DNA of 64,000 nt from a phage: assembly GCA_018509705.1 (NCBI GenBank), contig GCA_018509705.1_3630.1, one strand, 5' to 3'. Of this stretch, positions 1 through 46,137 are shown one piece after another. The position numbers were made by a program, and so were the translations under genes. The notes below the pieces were generated by a model. That model was not told the origin of the DNA. It worked only from the letters and a program-made list of their open reading frames with translations, and did not search any database. Every line of letters starts with the position of its first letter. The first letter of the stretch is position 1.

Positions 1-165
1 ATCTCTCTTAACCATATTTTTGTTTCTACGAGATCCACCCTTCCTGTAGTACATATAGCATTCCTTGCATGTACCTGAGTATCCATCCTTGCTCTTAGAT
101 GATAAAAAGAAATCATCAATAGGTAGAACTCTTTGGCAATCCATACATTTTTTAGTATTACACAT
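1..165 (-). CDS. Cys-rich zinc-ribbon protein, N-terminal part; gene runs off the window start; possible homing-endonuclease-like ORF
   Basis: Minus-strand ATG at 165 after GGGAGGG RBS; open to position 1; CxxC...CKEC pattern like the N-terminus of the HNH protein at 63156-63734. Confidence 0.3.
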   Translation of the reverse strand, partial: MCNTKKCMDCQRVLPIDDFFLSSKSKDGYSGTCKECYMYYRKGGSRRNKNMVKRD

Positions 166-380
166 TCACCCTCCCGTTTCGAATCGCTTGATTCTACGTC
201 TTTCGACTAGTCGTTGAACGTTCATCCTCTCGGATGCTTCGCTGCGGATTATCTAAATTAACACACTGTTACCATACCTTCGATCTCTCTTCGAAGCCTC
301 TATCATGTTACCATGACAGGTTGGTGGTGTCAATAATAAAGATTTCCCCGCAATTAGGGAGGTTTTACGAGAGCTACAAA

Positions 381-809
381 TTAACCCTCATCGAAGCAAA
401 CCATGGTGTACTCAAGCCCTTGATGGTTAAGCTTATCTTGTACATACTCCATGTGACAGTATTTTACAACAGCTCCCTTTTTGCTTCTATCCCACTTGCC
501 AGTGTTCGGATCAAACCGTGGAAAAATGAACTTATGATCCTTCTCTCTGAACTTTGGCTTAATGTTTTCAGGCAGATCACTGTAAATAGCTACTGCTTTA
601 GGCCATAGTCCACCCTCACCTTCCAACTGTGGGGTTGTTCTTCGGAACATAACCACAGAGCTGTGGGGGTCATCAATAATTTTAAGTGGCATCAACTGCA
701 AGAGGAACGACTTGCCAGACCCTGCGGCACCGCCGATTACCAAAATATCTGCATCGTTTTCTAGGATCATCTTCTGCTTTTCAGAACACGGTCCGTAAAT
801 CTTAGACAT
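381..809 (-). CDS. P-loop ATPase fragment resembling a terminase large subunit N-terminal domain, ending right after a Walker-B-like FDEG
   Basis: Walker A GGAAGSGKS preceded by Q-rich motif, C-terminus MVCFDEG then stop; only 142 aa. Confidence 0.4.
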   Translation of the reverse strand: MSKIYGPCSEKQKMILENDADILVIGGAAGSGKSFLLQLMPLKIIDDPHSSVVMFRRTTPQLEGEGGLWPKAVAIYSDLPENIKPKFREKDHKFIFPRFDPNTGKWDRSKKGAVVKYCHMEYVQDKLNHQGLEYTMVCFDEG

Positions 810-1096
810 TAACCTCTCTCCTTTGGAAACAGTGTTCTAATATAGTCTTGCAAAATGATCAATTTAGCTCTATCATTGCTACAAGACAGATTATTATCCC
901 TCATAATGCCAGAATTCACTGCATCTGGCGCACCTTTCTTCAAAGGCATAGCTTTAGCAGGTGGTTTCATGGCACCTTCCGGGGGTTTAACAATCAACCT
1001 TCCTACATCCGGAGGGTCAATCTTGTATTCTCTCTCAACGCTGGTTGCACACCCACATAATAACAAGCACACAATAAACAGTGTAGCAACTCTCAT
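809..1096 (-). CDS. o-spanin-like outer-membrane lipoprotein
   Basis: Signal peptide with lipobox LLLCGC, proline-rich, overlaps upstream gene by 4 nt. Confidence 0.55.
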   Translation of the reverse strand: MRVATLFIVCLLLCGCATSVEREYKIDPPDVGRLIVKPPEGAMKPPAKAMPLKKGAPDAVNSGIMRDNNLSCSNDRAKLIILQDYIRTLFPKERG

Positions 1097-2157: not shown

Positions 2158-2256
2158 GGTGCTAGGTGATGGAATCGAACCACCTATGTATTCAACGACT
2201 ACCTCGTCTATTTTCAGGATTAAAAATCCTCGCCCTTGCCAAAGGGCTTACCTAGC
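2158..2256 (-). tRNA. Aberrant tRNA-like element (good acceptor/D/T arms, irregular anticodon arm, over-long variable region); possible pseudo-tRNA
   Basis: Acceptor GCTAGGT/ACCTAGC pair, T-arm GGTGGTTCGATTCCATC, but anticodon stem does not close canonically and about 30 nt lie between anticodon arm and T-arm. Confidence 0.25.
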
Positions 2257-3160: not shown

Positions 3161-3504
3161 GTTTCCTCCATTATCACGTGATAGGTGGATTTTATCATAG
3201 CAAATACTGATTGTCAAGTTCGCCGCAGGGTGGTATTCCCTGCGACTTGTCCAGCGTCCTGGACCAGCAAGACCCAACAAGTGGGTTACCAGAGCCCATT
3301 ACCGCACTTTGGCTCGACCTTATTACAGGTTGGCTGGGGTCACATCGTCATGTGCTGGCTGCCCCTACCATTTTAAGTGTGGTGCACTATCAAGCCCTCT
3401 AAGGGGAACTCAGCCTTCTCCGAACCCTGTTTCAAAGCATCCGGAGATAAAGCCATCAAATTCATCTTTAAATTGGATATTCATCATGATACACGAAAAC
3501 AACC

Positions 3505-3823: not shown

Positions 3824-4033
3824 TCAACAGATTCCGGCCTTATCCTTCCTGTCTGCGTATTCTTTAATCGCAACCTCATCTGCATTAGTGACCAGGTCTT
3901 CAAAGTAACTCTCAAGCTCCTCGTCAATGTCAGGAGACCAGCTCTTTTTCCTGTCAGTGTGAATTGCAGACTTGTTGAACTTATTACAGTTCTTTGCTAC
4001 CGGGTTGTTCATTAAGCGCTCCTCAGCGTTCAT
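3824..4033 (-). CDS. hypothetical protein
   Basis: ORF track; overlaps start of next gene by about 10 nt. Confidence 0.35.
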   Translation of the reverse strand: MNAEERLMNNPVAKNCNKFNKSAIHTDRKKSWSPDIDEELESYFEDLVTNADEVAIKEYADRKDKAGIC

Positions 4034-4601
4034 AGTAAATCTTATTTAACATTACCTCATCCTTTGCAGAAAGGATATCAAGATATGCATCACCAAATCT
4101 TCCTGCAACAACCTCTGCATGATACATCACTTCGTTAACATCGTCAAGAGTGATAACCGGATGACCATATCTTTCTGAATATTGTCTCAGGGTGCGATGT
4201 AACGAGTCGTCATCATATGCAGACTTTTTAATATCACAAACACGACGAATAGCCTTGATGTCGAAAAAACCTGTGCGATACCACCCAAGAAAAAGGTTTC
4301 GTGCAGTGTCAACATCTACATTGATACCATCAAGAACCTTATCTACAAGATAGCTGTCATCCTTTGGACCAGCGTCCTTAGTGCGAATGTAGTTGCCATC
4401 TTTTCCAGGCGACATCTCCTTCTCATCCCCAACCTGAATGCCATCATTTGGCGGTGTTAGCCACTTATCCGGATGCTTACGATCACGAGCGTTAGAATGA
4501 TTACGCTGGAAACCGGGCTTCCACTTGAAAGTTTTCTCCATCTGTTCTTCATTCTGATAACGTTTTGCAATCTTTTCACGGTCATCTTTGCGTGAACCCA
4601 T
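4023..4601 (-). CDS. hypothetical protein (192 aa)
   Basis: ORF track; no recognisable motif. Confidence 0.45.
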   Translation of the reverse strand: MGSRKDDREKIAKRYQNEEQMEKTFKWKPGFQRNHSNARDRKHPDKWLTPPNDGIQVGDEKEMSPGKDGNYIRTKDAGPKDDSYLVDKVLDGINVDVDTARNLFLGWYRTGFFDIKAIRRVCDIKKSAYDDDSLHRTLRQYSERYGHPVITLDDVNEVMYHAEVVAGRFGDAYLDILSAKDEVMLNKIYYER

Positions 4602-4699
4602 AGCTGCCTCCTCTTCAAGTTATAGAAAAACTAACTGTATCGCTTTGTAACGAGCTTTTCTATCAAACTGGTGCGATTGCATTACCTGGTATAGTTTAT

Positions 4700-4975
4700 A
4701 TAGCTGTGGAGCGATTTAGGTGCCTTCTTGTCCGTTTCCACACATAAACTTCATCCAAGCTCGCGCGGGAGACTCTCAACCGACTCCTTCCGGCGCTGGC
4801 AAGCTTTCGTCGGTGGTCCACATCAGTGCTCGGCCTTTGGCCTGCGCTATCGCTTCGCTCTCACACATGTTAACAGACCTGCATGTATGCACTTCTGTTA
4901 TTGTGTGCACCAGGGAGGCCCGGCATCTCGCCCCTCGTAGGCGAGTGCCAATGAAGGGCCGACACTACCCATAGT
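4700..4975. other. GC-rich structured island without convincing ORF; candidate stable non-coding RNA next to the tRNA cluster
   Basis: Local GC clearly higher than flanks, many short complementary GC stems, track ORFs here have no RBS and odd composition. Confidence 0.25.
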
Positions 4976-5104
4976 AAGTAATAAATTTAAAACATGGTAC
5001 TTAGGATCTAATATATTCTACATAAGTTAAGTATATGTACTTAGTACCATAAGTACTAGATCTTTTGTTTTTTATTATTTAGTTATTTTAGTTATATTCT
5101 TTAT

Positions 5105-5148
5105 GTGTCCGTATCACGGACAGTTAGTGTCCGTATTACGGACAGTTA
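5105..5148. repeat. Tandem 22-bp direct repeat, each copy an inverted repeat GTCCGT-N3-ACGGAC (operator-like)
   Basis: GTGTCCGTATCACGGACAGTTA followed immediately by GTGTCCGTATTACGGACAGTTA. Confidence 0.6.
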
Positions 5149-5219
5149 CTAACCTCTGTTCCAGAGCGAACATAAAACATACGAATCCTTATAGTACAGA
5201 TATTTAAGTTTTTACTGGT

Positions 5220-5570
5220 CTAACCAGTTGTTGACATTCGAATAACTTCTTCTGGTGGCAAAACTTTGGAAAATGTGCATCTTTTACCTCTCCCTTGTGT
5301 GGATATTTCAACCACTCCCGCACATTCTAAAGTTTTAACGCACGCTGCTGCTTTTGTTTTCTTTATTCCAACATCTGCTGCAATTTTCCTTGTGCTGGGT
5401 GTGAAGCGTGAACTTCCTCCAAGCTTATACCAGTTGTGCAGGTAGCAGTATACGATCTTGTCATACAAGTCAAGAACAACAACCTCCCCAGTTGTGTCAT
5501 TCAAAACTTTTGACATAGATAGTATTTCAAGGGGGACTTTAAGATATAGCAGCTTATCCCCATCTTTCAT
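5220..5570 (-). CDS. putative helix-turn-helix DNA-binding protein
   Basis: Segment TRKIAADVGIKKTKAAACVKTLE resembles an HTH; sits beside the palindromic tandem repeat. Confidence 0.35.
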   Translation of the reverse strand: MKDGDKLLYLKVPLEILSMSKVLNDTTGEVVVLDLYDKIVYCYLHNWYKLGGSSRFTPSTRKIAADVGIKKTKAAACVKTLECAGVVEISTQGRGKRCTFSKVLPPEEVIRMSTTG

Positions 5571-5617
5571 ATCTCCTGATTCTCCTTGTGTGGCAATTTT
5601 CTTTAAAATAGCAGGGA

Positions 5618-6172
5618 TTACTCCCCGCTGTCAATAGCAAAACTCATTGCAATACGGTATGCCTCTTCTAATGGTAAGAGTCTCCCCCACACATCCCAAC
5701 CGACATCAAACTGTCTGCCAAACAACTGTTGTGTGGTTCCGTGAGCATGACCGAACAGTTGGACTGATCCGTGAGGCTTTCTGTTCCACTTTGCAAACTG
5801 GTAATGGCTCATACAGATCAAATTCTTGTTGTGGCGAAGCTCGTAATAATCTACAACCTCATGACCGAACTCTTTCATAATTCTGACAGTCGTCCTTGTG
5901 TCATGGTTACCACGAACAAGAATAATATGTCCGTTCAACATATTTAGAACATCTGGGAGCAATTTGTTGATATTCTTATCATTAGTGCACGCAATATCTC
6001 CCAAGTGAAACACAGTGTCTGCAGGTGACACAACAGAGTTCCACTTGGTGATGATTCCCGCATTCATACTGTCAAGATTGTGATCATACTGAGATCTGTG
6101 TTTTTGACATGAGTCGAACTCCATGACCCGCTGGTGGAGAAAGTGTGTGTCGCTTGTTACAAAGTATTTCAT
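5618..6172 (-). CDS. calcineurin-like metallophosphoesterase (Ser/Thr-phosphatase fold)
   Basis: Motifs SDTH(F), LGDI, GNHD in order; start at MKYF with GAGGA RBS, 7 nt after stop of upstream kinase gene. Confidence 0.7.
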   Translation of the reverse strand: MKYFVTSDTHFLHQRVMEFDSCQKHRSQYDHNLDSMNAGIITKWNSVVSPADTVFHLGDIACTNDKNINKLLPDVLNMLNGHIILVRGNHDTRTTVRIMKEFGHEVVDYYELRHNKNLICMSHYQFAKWNRKPHGSVQLFGHAHGTTQQLFGRQFDVGWDVWGRLLPLEEAYRIAMSFAIDSGE

Positions 6173-6590: not shown

Positions 6591-6711
6591 AGTAATCCTC
6601 CGTTTTAATTTCAACGATAGTATACCCAACTGTTTTGTTAATTTCAAGTGTTGACACTAGGTTATTTGTGTGGCAGGATAGACTGACAAAATGACAAATG
6701 AGGAATGTATA

Positions 6712-11976: not shown

Positions 11977-12649
11977 CGGGATTGACTGGTGGAGTGTCTT
12001 TAGATACGATACAGGCACTGGAAGGTTGTTTTGGAAGTCCCCACCAAAAAACAAACCTCAACTAATGGGAAAGGAGGCTGGATGTACTAACAACGGGTAC
12101 AGGGATATAGTCTATCGTGGCGTGCATTACTACAGGCATAGATTGGTGTGGGAGATGCATTATGGACCAATCCCAGAAGGGTACGAAGTTGATCACATAA
12201 AGCCACTTTTCTATTCCGACGGTGTTGCGGATGATAGGGTAGAAAACCTACAACTGTTAACACCAGAAGAAAATGCAAAAAAGGCGGCAGATGACGGATG
12301 CCTGGCACGCAAGATACCTAAATCCAATACTGGACATTTGGGTGTATATTTTCATGCTAGATCTGGAAGGTATGCTGCTTTTGGTAAGGTAGGTCATTAC
12401 TATAAGAAAGACCTAGGAGAATACGATACCTTAGAAGAGGCCATTGCTGCTCAAAAGTCTTTTGAAAGTGGCACGTTTGTCAGGGAATATCGTGGACAGC
12501 CTTTAGGGAGGGATAAATCTAGAGGTGTCAGATTTGAAGCAGATAGGGGCAAATGGAAAGTAACTTTCAGAGGAAAAACGCTAGGCAGGTTTGACACCAA
12601 AGAGTCTGCTGAAGCGTGTTACGCAAAGGCTCTTACTGAAAGCTTGTAA
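11954..12649 (+). CDS. HNH homing endonuclease with AP2-like DNA-binding region
   Basis: YEVDHIKP ... ENLQLLTPEEN HNH motif; C-terminal basic repeats. Confidence 0.65.
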   Translation: MELLQMSNGIDWWSVFRYDTGTGRLFWKSPPKNKPQLMGKEAGCTNNGYRDIVYRGVHYYRHRLVWEMHYGPIPEGYEVDHIKPLFYSDGVADDRVENLQLLTPEENAKKAADDGCLARKIPKSNTGHLGVYFHARSGRYAAFGKVGHYYKKDLGEYDTLEEAIAAQKSFESGTFVREYRGQPLGRDKSRGVRFEADRGKWKVTFRGKTLGRFDTKESAEACYAKALTESL

Positions 12650-12657
12650 CAGTATCA

Positions 12658-12686
12658 TTGACATAACCACACGGACGTGGTATTGT
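12658..12686 (+). promoter_or_regulatory. sigma70-like promoter
   Basis: TTGACA-17nt-TATTGT upstream of gene 12718. Confidence 0.35.
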
Positions 12687-12717
12687 CACCTCATAAAATG
12701 TTTGAGAGGGTTTAACC

Positions 12718-12933: not shown

Positions 12934-13398
12934 GTGGAAGACGGACGTTTAATGAAGTCTGAACGCAGGCTTATTGTGCAACTGATCCCAGAAACAGCTT
13001 GGTATAATAACCTCCGAAACGCTGTAAAGAAGAGTGAGTGGGATAAGATCCGCAAGAAGTGCTATAGAGAAGCCAACTACACCTGTGAGGTGTGCGGCGG
13101 TAAAGGCAGCAAACACCCAGTGGAGTGTCATGAACTTTACACTTTCGAAGAGGGAGTGATCCGGCTTGTCGGACTGATAGCGTTGTGCCCAGATTGTCAC
13201 ACATCGGTGCATCCTGGGTTAGCAAATATTCGTGGAAAGTATGCTCAGGCAGTTAATCAGTTGGCTAAGGTGAATAAGATCACCAGAGGTATGGCAGAGG
13301 CGTATTACCGAGACTGCTTTGCAGAGTGGCGCGAGCTTAGTAAAGTTCCAGAATGGAAGACTGACTTTTCGTGGATAGAGGATTACCTTGATGGCTAA
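12934..13398 (+). CDS. Cys/His-rich putative His-Me-finger nuclease
   Basis: CEVCGG ... ECHELY ... CPDCH arrangement. Confidence 0.35.
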   Translation: MEDGRLMKSERRLIVQLIPETAWYNNLRNAVKKSEWDKIRKKCYREANYTCEVCGGKGSKHPVECHELYTFEEGVIRLVGLIALCPDCHTSVHPGLANIRGKYAQAVNQLAKVNKITRGMAEAYYRDCFAEWRELSKVPEWKTDFSWIEDYLDG

Positions 13399-13681
13399 GA
13401 GATCTGTAAAAGAGAAATTCGATAAGACAGCTTTTGTATTCGATACACCTCTGGACGATATCATCAGAGGTATGCAAGCCTTGTATCGGAAGGCTGAATC
13501 TGAGCAGTTGTCTGAATCAGAACTTTACTGGCTTGGTTGGTGGGAGTTAAACCTGCCTAGAGCTGAAAGTTCTTGTCTGAGAACTGTTAAAACGTGCGCC
13601 CAAGAAAACGCTGCACTTGGAATCTACCACAAAAGGAAAAGATCAACAAAAAGCTCTCCAAGAAAGACTAAAAAGTCTTGA
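13388..13681 (+). CDS. hypothetical protein, basic C-terminus
   Basis: ORF track. Confidence 0.35.
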   Translation: MMAKRSVKEKFDKTAFVFDTPLDDIIRGMQALYRKAESEQLSESELYWLGWWELNLPRAESSCLRTVKTCAQENAALGIYHKRKRSTKSSPRKTKKS

Positions 13682-45838: not shown

Positions 45839-45928
45839 ATGAGAACATTGTCCGAAGTTTTAGTGGTGATCCTGATGATTATTACGTCCATAGCGGCTGT
45901 TGCCGGAATACTCACGGGTGGAACATGA
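45839..45928 (+). CDS. micro-ORF, 29-aa hydrophobic peptide
   Basis: TGGAG RBS; MRTLSEVLVVILMIITSIAAVAGILTGGT; stop overlaps next ATG. Confidence 0.3.
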   Translation: MRTLSEVLVVILMIITSIAAVAGILTGGT

Positions 45929-46137
45929 TCAACACACATGCATCTGAAGAGACATCCGAAGGAGTGACCATATGTCCCTTGGCTGATCCAGTGAAAGAGG
46001 AAAACTTCGATTCTGAAGATTCTCCATCTTCGCTCCAGGTAGATCCTGAGGCTGATGATCTAACGTGGGAAGACATCGTAGACATCTGGTTCTCTATTAT
46101 GCCTGAGCACGAAGAGTTCAGGGGTGGTAGACTATGA
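45925..46137 (+). CDS. hypothetical small acidic protein
   Basis: ORF track. Confidence 0.35.
   Translation: MINTHASEETSEGVTICPLADPVKEENFDSEDSPSSLQVDPEADDLTWEDIVDIWFSIMPEHEEFRGGRL

Follow-up and report, generated by a model that had tools for sequence, protein, structure and literature searches.

The window analysed here, 64,000 nucleotides of contig GCA_018509705.1_3630.1 (assembly GCA_018509705.1), belongs to the genome of a Vequintavirus, an rV5-like Escherichia coli myovirus of ∼137 kb. Our subject is a 618-bp gap that separates two minus-strand genes, the homologues of rV5 ORF77 and ORF79. The gap contains a GC-rich island, an AT-rich tract and a pair of tandem palindromic repeats, and the ORF79 homologue next to it encodes a 116-residue protein of the helix-turn-helix (HTH) class. 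The island appears to be a folded, conserved non-coding element, and we tentatively consider the locus as a candidate replication origin. The features are as follows (the parts of the island are given further below).

4023–4601, minus strand: homologue of rV5 ORF77 (rV5 annotation)
4700–4975: GC-rich island
4976–5104, no strand assigned: AT-rich tract, 129 bp with 19.4% GC, the proposed DNA-unwinding element
5105–5148, no strand assigned: two tandem 22-bp units, an iteron or operator array (Tandem Repeats Finder, TRF, and palindrome search)
5220–5570, minus strand: gene for a 116-residue winged-helix protein of HTH_36 type, the proposed repeat binder (Pfam, PHROG)
5605–5634, minus strand: sigma-70-like promoter of the HTH gene, TTGACA-18-TATTTT, scoring 10/12, with TG; an annotated promoter in rV5

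A BLAST search with positions 4600–5220 returned 119 phage records, all matching over the full length with 87–97% identity and every one a Vequintavirus. The island has a GC content of 56.2% compared with a window mean of 42.5% and ranks first among the 276-nt stretches of the 64 kb (z = 4.1, with a standard deviation of 3.3% over 276-nt windows). Just 0.009% of such windows are as GC-rich, and every one of them overlaps the island locus. The tract at 4976–5104, between the island and the repeats, is the lowest-GC 129-nt stretch of the window, and the GC-richest and AT-richest stretches of the 64 kb thus adjoin each other. A preliminary description, made from the sequence alone, had placed a GC-rich block here between minus-strand genes; the block, and likewise the tandem repeat and the HTH gene of that description, is present as placed and lies far beyond chance.

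The same description saw no credible open reading frame (ORF) in the island, and codon-position counts, in-frame stops, a frameshift and missing start codons agree. The longest ORF (plus strand, 4720–4974, 84 residues) has substitutions spread as 16/16/16 over the three codon positions among 13 relatives; in-frame stops interrupt it in four relatives and a frameshift in one, and the start codon is missing from most. We reject the island as coding on the even codon-position changes, the stops and the frameshift. The changes in a 41-residue minus-strand ORF of the island fall mostly at second codon positions, in an alignment judged by eye.

The island divides into four parts, all given on the minus strand.

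4701–4755, minus strand: left edge, 90.6% identity, less conserved, with a CCTAAAT motif common to the plasmids described below
4756–4850, minus strand: block 1 core, present in all Vequintavirus and in all of the 13-kb plasmids
4851–4911, minus strand: variable hairpin (arms 4864–4884/4887–4907), 83.5% identity, 46% of columns variable
4912–4966, minus strand: block 2, a 15-bp interrupted hairpin with pairing maintained between phage and plasmid

In block 1 a 6-bp stem (4779–4784/4809–4814) closes an invariant 24-nt loop (4785–4808). There is also an outer 3-bp helix (4771–4773/4816–4818) and a conserved 3′ extension with a GGCC-AAA-GGCC hairpin. The stems of block 2 are 4917–4921/4956–4960, 4922–4925/4946–4949 and 4927–4932/4940–4945. 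The two cores (4756–4850 and 4912–4966) are 96.5–97% identical among 13 phages and are more conserved than their flanks across the 119 genomes. They are the sole parts of the locus with matches outside phages, at 85–87% identity, in circular E. coli 'plasmids' of 13.2–13.9 kb. The variable hairpin is 18 nt shorter in rV5, Murica and typing phage 5, and the plasmids have other hairpin modules in its place.

Comparison of phage and plasmid copies shows that three of the six pairs of the block 1 stem have changed in a compensatory manner, with 100% of cells paired; read on the minus strand, the stem is ACCGAC/GUCGGU in the phage and GCUGCC/GGCAGC in the plasmid. In block 2 two of the 15 pairs are compensatory (G–C to U–A, phage to plasmid) and 99% of cells are paired. 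Slid controls gave 22–48% paired. The covariation rests on about three independent lineages and its statistics are thin. The fold energy of the island is modestly below that of shuffled controls (z of −1.8 and −2.4) and does not tell the strands apart. Two phage lineages have G–U in the block 1 stem when it is read on the minus strand (A–C if read on the plus strand), and these pairs point to the minus strand as the one that would fold. Judged from these alignments, the island is a conserved, folded non-coding element probably kept by selection for pairing, the five double changes, of transversion type, being hard to explain otherwise. The structure noticed in the preliminary description has in this sense held up, in the form of two hairpins that keep their pairing. 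The folded form may be RNA or single-stranded DNA, and the sequence fits both.

The AT-rich tract shows 98.5% mean pairwise identity among 13 phages. It contains three to four copies of TTTTAGTTA (5063–5095) beside the repeats, an inverted repeat (4994–5004/5040–5050) and two GATC sites. No sigma-70-like promoter was found in the tract on either strand; a candidate, TTTAAA-17-TAATAT, scored 8/12 and was set aside as too weak.

TRF reports the repeats at 5105–5148 with a period of 22, 2.0 copies, 95% matches and a score of 81, and each unit has a perfect palindrome TGTCCG-N5-CGGACA (5106–5122 and 5128–5144). The tandem 22-bp palindromic repeat reported earlier at this position is thus confirmed by TRF and by palindrome search, and no further copy of the palindrome with one mismatch or fewer occurs in the 64-kb window. 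The copy number varies from two to four among 13 Vequintavirus spacers: most have four, V18 and nomine have three, and the window and navn have two. The units of the four-unit genomes are GTGTCCGTATCACGGACAGTTA, GTGTCCGTATTACGGGCAGAT, GTGTCCGCGTGACGGACAGTA and GTGTCCGTATCACGGACAGTTAC. Across the relatives in the 13-spacer alignment, variation falls in the central 5 nt and spares the half-sites, and the unit adjoining the AT tract is present in every relative aligned. With an array period of 21–22 bp, the units are two helical turns apart.

The conservation of both elements bears on the view that neither has a role, the island being left over from DNA acquired horizontally and the repeats a slippage-prone duplication. 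The GC content, atypical for the phage, and the unstable copy number of the repeats would both fit that view. It conflicts with cores that are more conserved than their flanks, with compensatory substitutions that maintain pairing and with half-sites that are conserved around a variable centre. A host pseudogene remnant, which the preliminary description had named as an outcome that would overturn its reading, is not supported either: the island has no match in E. coli chromosomes and matches only four plasmids. We consider an absence of function to be highly improbable.

The putative HTH gene of the preliminary description (5220–5570) does encode such a product: the 116-residue protein has sub-threshold matches to HTH_36 and DUF6945 and belongs with PHROG 12838 (E = 8.5e-80), with weaker matches to three other PHROGs labelled 'replication initiation protein'. 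Its annotation is in conflict: GenBank has 'putative transcriptional regulator', RefSeq 'replication initiation protein'. Homologues are limited to the 119 Vequintavirus records, and a PDB sequence search returned the uncharacterised protein 4ro3 alone. The array lies ∼70 bp downstream of the stop codon of the gene (5220), and a search of the promoter at 5634–5605 for the palindrome found no copy. Because the sites are downstream of the gene and absent from its promoter, an autoregulatory operator is not supported; the 'textbook operator pair' proposed for this gene thus does not fit sites that lie 3′ of it in two to four copies. The other part of that proposal fared better: the repeats are very probably dimer-binding sites of the adjacent HTH protein, as suggested by a comparison with a divergent relative.

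This relative (L010) is a metagenomic contig of 137 kb in which ORF77 and the island are kept. In place of the HTH gene of the window it has a homologue of 143 residues (27% identity, E = 5e-7, with HTH_36 and PHROG 8102/12838 matches), and its palindromic repeats, ATCTGATGCA and TGATACAAATATGTATCA, differ from those of the window. Its tract is also a different one, AT/T-rich and with no motif in common with the AT tract of the window. Because L010 pairs a different homologue with different repeats, the HTH protein and the repeats appear to change together, as cognate partners do, and from this joint change of protein and sites we infer that the protein would bind the repeats as an initiator binds iterons. 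Directly downstream of the ORF77 homologue, L010 also carries a Bro-N/ANT anti-repressor-like gene (157–1020, minus strand) that has no counterpart there in the window.

The preliminary description took the island for the gene of a stable small RNA similar to the T4 species 1 and 2 RNAs, with the tandem palindrome as the autoregulatory operator of the HTH gene. An island that is folded, conserved and non-coding, in an early region and 2 kb from seven tRNA genes (cluster at 1913–2725), is what such a reading would expect. The distance to the tRNA cluster stands as described, but the two are not contiguous: three protein genes and another island intervene. A scan of the window against Rfam (4227 families) brought tRNAs alone to the gathering threshold and left the island without a match. 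At E < 10 the island gave only a spurious AT-rich match to rli43 (23 bits against a threshold of 100), and the plasmid copy of the island gave no match in its own Rfam scan. A sigma-70-type scan, which does not reach phage-specific promoters, found no sigma-70-like promoter or intrinsic terminator around 4700–4975 that would bracket such a gene. Further points against a small-RNA gene are a fold energy that is modest relative to shuffled sequence, palindromes that follow the HTH gene with no copy at its promoter, and an island that persists in L010 with a different HTH protein and different sites. Taken together, we regard this reading as very unlikely.

Several other signals were looked for in the island. 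A sequence resembling an SP6 promoter, ATTTAGGTG at 4714, was dismissed since the essential downstream part is missing and the phage is without such a polymerase. DnaA-box-like, CsrA-type GGA and guanidine-II-like ACGR motifs, checked by eye, are neither enriched nor conserved. A covariance model of block 1 finds one copy per replicon and no extra copies. A first scan with a 19-mer motif of the island gave a chance match inside a tape-measure gene, and a scan of genome contigs with the island motif gave one match, also by chance. The island-motif scan of metagenomes returned 32 loci, of which six are true (four phage-like and two plasmid-like); the block 2 pattern returned L010 alone.

Among 50,697 phage records, Microviridae included, no match to the island was found outside Vequintavirus, and among plasmids the matches are limited to the 13-kb family. 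The family comprises NZ_CP020521 (L007), NZ_CP035869, NZ_CP178698, CP148565, the trimer NZ_CP043822 and two metagenome contigs (locus labels of the family L007, L019–L021, L008, L029 and L034). The 39.6-kb record NZ_CP043822 consists of three units joined head to tail. Genes for a major head protein, a tape-measure-like protein and a neck protein are present in these plasmids, and no terminase or portal was detected in the family; ∼2.9 kb is non-coding and repeat-rich. They may be satellites or mini-phages. The proteins of the plasmids and of the window have none in common, and the 1.7-kb non-coding region of the plasmids, compared with the same phage records, matches only at the island blocks and only in Vequintavirus.

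The order and orientation of the elements in NZ_CP020521 are as in the phage: an island (12381–12688), an AT tract (12960–13140; 23–27% GC, with three 36-nt repeats) and iterons (13235–13515; at least six dyad-symmetric units CGGAAATATTTACCG with 23-bp spacing). Block 2 is common to this plasmid and the phage, at 87% identity. In the sister plasmids block 1 is retained, block 2 is absent and the hairpin modules are other ones; the palindromic core of the iterons differs as well, being GGAAATTCC, GTAAAAATATTTTAC or GAGAAATTCTC. The plasmids also encode an HTH protein of 303 residues with weak matches to 'replication initiation O-like' PHROGs; in a direct comparison it has no significant similarity to the 116-residue protein. 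In both replicon families, then, the island is constant, the initiator and iterons vary, and the side and orientation are kept, as would be expected of an origin accessory element read by a common factor, be it a host or a general one.

Some smaller likenesses between plasmids and window were also seen. A 20-nt motif, CAGGTAATGCAATTGCACCA, lies at 12289–12308 of NZ_CP020521, ∼125–135 nt to the left of block 1 in the 13-kb plasmids. Motif comparison with the plasmids places its reverse complement, with one mismatch, at an equivalent distance from block 1 in the window, that is, at the same place in the opposite orientation:

4669–4688, no strand assigned: 20-nt motif TGGTGCGATTGCATTACCTG

The motif CCCACACA (plus strand) borders hairpin modules in the plasmids (NZ_CP020521, 12380–12700), where the modules differ between sister plasmids, and occurs twice in the window island (4738–4745 and 4860–4866). 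A 57-nt stretch of the plasmid gene for the 303-residue HTH/Rep-like protein (NZ_CP020521, 10882–10938) is 82% identical to positions 45944–46000 of the window, which overlap a small acidic ORF (45925–46137, plus strand).

The plasmids invite the explanation that the island is a signal in DNA or RNA for a Vequintavirus protein (a pac site or a late-activation site), copied by the 13-kb plasmids to parasitise the phages. Their complement of head, tape-measure-like and neck proteins with no detectable terminase or portal, the head-to-tail trimer, the match of their non-coding region to the Vequintavirus island blocks and to nothing else among the phage records, and the large terminase gene that the rV5 annotation places ∼4 kb from the locus would all agree with such a relationship. 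The compensatory changes in the hairpins, however, argue for a folded single strand and not for a duplex terminase site, block 2 is missing in most of the plasmids, and a constant place beside iterons fits replication better. Packaging or mobilisation of the plasmids is without evidence, and literature searches on Vequintavirus transcriptomes or satellites yielded nothing useful. We therefore hold a helper-dependent cis site to be unlikely.

A stronger competitor is transcriptional control, with the protein acting as a winged helix-turn-helix (wHTH) repressor or activator. Transcription entering the island and ORF77–76 from the HTH gene, or from a phage-specific AT-tract promoter, would be controlled or roadblocked at the array, and the island would be a structured leader or intercistronic RNA with a part in processing, stability or antitermination. 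Dimeric wHTH regulators typically have palindromic sites, and the protein has weak matches to CodY, LexA and MarR-type models. All of the genes are on the minus strand, with no terminator between the HTH gene and ORF77, so that the island is probably transcribed; rV5 is annotated with a single promoter for this block of genes, located ahead of the HTH gene; and the G–U pairs speak for the minus strand, which is the transcribed one. Conservation is also high, L010 included, in the 100 nt that lead from the island to the start of ORF77. Against this, the AT tract shows no sigma-70-like promoter on either strand in the window and shares no motif with that of L010, and four in-phase sites beside the AT-richest tract would be an unusual operator geometry. 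In the plasmid, the neighbouring operon has its strong sigma-70-like promoter downstream of the island, which for that reason is not the leader of that operon; the genes downstream of the island are unrelated in phage and plasmid. On these grounds a transcriptional control region is possible but somewhat doubtful.

We tentatively favour a different reading, at a little less than an even chance: the locus would be a lambda-type replication-origin module accompanied by a folded accessory element that is independent of the initiator and serves as a priming site or as an RNA. The layout suggests an origin rather than an autoregulatory operator because the sites occur in two to four dyad-symmetric copies, abut the AT-richest tract and lie 3′ of the gene; dyad-symmetric repeated sites and an AT tract directly adjoining them are what a lambda-type origin has. 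The 116-residue winged-helix protein would be made early from the sigma-70-like promoter at 5634–5605. Dimers of the protein would bind the 21–22-bp dyad-symmetric iterons downstream of its gene, as the joint change of protein and sites suggests, and the resulting nucleoprotein complex would destabilise the 129-bp tract of 19% GC, the presumed unwinding element. The island would be a separate cis element, independent of the initiator, with two hairpins and invariant loops in one strand. The minus strand of the island would be the lagging-strand template of a leftward fork, and we prefer to see in it a single-strand initiation (ssi) signal, for priming or for helicase or primosome entry, read by a host or general replication factor. 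A primer laid at the island would then be extended rightwards across the origin. Alternatively, a G-rich minus-strand origin transcript could serve as a structured primer or form an R-loop. If a host or general factor reads the island, this would explain why the island is unchanged while initiator and iterons are swapped, in phages and in plasmids.

A number of points weigh against the origin reading. The Pfam matches of the 116-residue protein (HTH_36, E = 8e-5; DUF6945, E = 2e-5) are both below the cut-offs, and the protein also draws weak matches from the CodY, LexA and MarR-type HTH models. The 'replication initiation' label of the PHROGs rests on a generic winged helix. Pfam and PHROG searches found no Phage_rep_O match and no second domain, so membership of the lambda O family is not borne out; the protein is without a domain that would recruit a helicase or loader, and no P-like gene is adjacent. 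An AlphaFold model from the single sequence was unusable (predicted local distance difference test score, pLDDT, of 43). The iterons are outside the gene here and inside the O gene in lambda. No sequence similarity of the island to known ssi or primosome sites was seen, the 50,697 phage records giving no match outside Vequintavirus and the plasmids none outside the 13-kb family, and two sequences alone decide which of its strands would fold. In the window the cumulative GC skew has its minimum at 6630, 1.5 kb from the array, where transcription also diverges; it is compatible with an origin, and gene orientation explains it equally well. The rV5 genome paper, which did not find the origin, saw the skew change only where the direction of transcription changes, one such point being at ∼6.6 kb of the window, and could not separate the two kinds of change (PMC3606486). 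No experiment is known to locate the rV5 origin.

A broader proposal for the island goes further, and we put it forward as doubtful though possible. The island would be an undescribed, portable origin-accessory folded strand (a priming site or a primer or R-loop RNA) that works with any iteron/initiator pair and is common to a virulent myovirus genus and to 13-kb capsid-encoding E. coli plasmids; the plasmids may then be satellites that use it to exploit the phage's replication machinery, or the machinery on which the phage itself depends. Should the island prove to be a signal for priming or loading that does not depend on the initiator, origins would gain a new portable component, and a helper–satellite or shared host-factor relationship would be hinted at. 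Whatever its role, it is an uncatalogued structured element with covariation, and it links a virulent phage genus to small phage-like plasmids with which the phages have no protein in common. The rV5-like phages form a large group with uses in phage therapy and O157 typing, and the locus offers a concrete, testable origin candidate for them. The origin reading, if true, would settle the conflict between the 'transcriptional regulator' and 'replication initiation protein' annotations.

Other observations concern the surroundings of the locus. The ∼100 nt from the island to the ORF77 start codon (4602–4700) are 96% conserved and nearly unchanged in L010, and an 11-nt inverted repeat lies within them (4622–4632/4653–4663), just upstream of the ribosome-binding site. 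In the tRNA cluster, a tRNA-like gene of 99 nt (2158–2256, minus strand) is given a four-base anticodon, atcc, by ARAGORN and is annotated as tRNA-OTHER in relatives; its Rfam tRNA score of 35.5 bits is just over the threshold. Between the ORF75 homologue and a sigma-70-like promoter (3217–3189) there is a second GC-rich non-coding island (3185–3430, 52% GC), which is unrelated in sequence to the island at 4700–4975. Its core (3295–3337) is 43 nt that are 93–95% identical to a site in ∼870 T4-like phage records; the T4 counterpart (64,860–64,902) is inside the annotated 5′ end of vs.8, and that of phage G50 is in a 140-nt intergenic gap. Eighteen of the 119 records that match the locus are named 'Campylobacter phage' (MG0656xx, for example MG065658), with Campylobacter jejuni listed as host. 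They are 90–95% identical to the E. coli Vequintavirus here, which suggests mislabelling or contamination.

Comparison with known systems places the elements of the locus at different distances from their nearest counterparts. The T4 species 1 and 2 RNAs (rnaC and rnaD) are, like the island, non-coding, phage-encoded and in the same broad region as tRNA genes; the island differs from them in not being contiguous with the tRNA cluster and in showing no sigma-70-like signals and no Rfam or sequence match. The operators of dimeric wHTH repressors (MarR, GntR and LexA types) have perfect 6-N5-6 palindromes and an adjacent wHTH gene in common with the locus, whereas here the sites are 3′ of the gene, off any recognisable promoter, two to four in number in helical phase and beside the AT-richest tract.

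The origin RNAs that act as primers or R-loops (ColE1 RNA II, T4 oriF and oriG and the T7 primary origin) also place a structured transcript beside an AT-rich unwinding region. A minus-strand transcript of the island would be G-rich (GC skew of ∼+0.15 on the minus strand), and G-richness favours RNA–DNA hybrids. Those systems are without an iteron-binding initiator and have no sequence similarity to the island, and no promoter was identified for such a transcript here. Like the primer RNAs, the ssi and primosome signals (G4-type, ϕX174-type, F Frpo and the M13 minus-strand origin) resemble the island in logic only: they are hairpin-rich stretches of 100–300 nt that act on one strand, in one orientation and adjacent to an origin. 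They work with host factors and hence are portable between unrelated replicons. The island differs in having no similarity outside the Vequintavirus phages and their 13-kb plasmid counterparts, and its conserved 24-nt loop has no known counterpart. It is an uncatalogued element, in no Rfam family, and its function is a matter of inference.

The closest known system appears to be ori-lambda with its O protein. In lambda, four iterons (six in Stx phages), which are 19-bp imperfect inverted repeats, are bound by O dimers beside an AT-rich tract, and two iterons with the AT tract suffice for unwinding (PMC7466680). HTH_36 has been reported at the N-terminus of lambda O (PMC5509034) and in proteins of the Stx-phage replication region (PMC8951638). 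The locus resembles these origins in its HTH_36-type winged helix, its inverted-repeat iterons of ∼19–22 bp, the adjoining AT tract and the variable iteron number, and initiator and iterons are exchanged together between relatives (PMC7466680, PMC5509034, PMC8951638). It differs in the iterons being downstream of the gene, in a protein of 116 residues with no C-terminal P-binding domain and no detectable similarity to O, in the lack of a P or helicase-loader gene next door, in the conserved GC-rich hairpin element at the AT tract, and in its setting, a virulent 137-kb myovirus. As the protein fails the test for membership of the O family, we would say that the locus works like the lambda origin and not that it is one.

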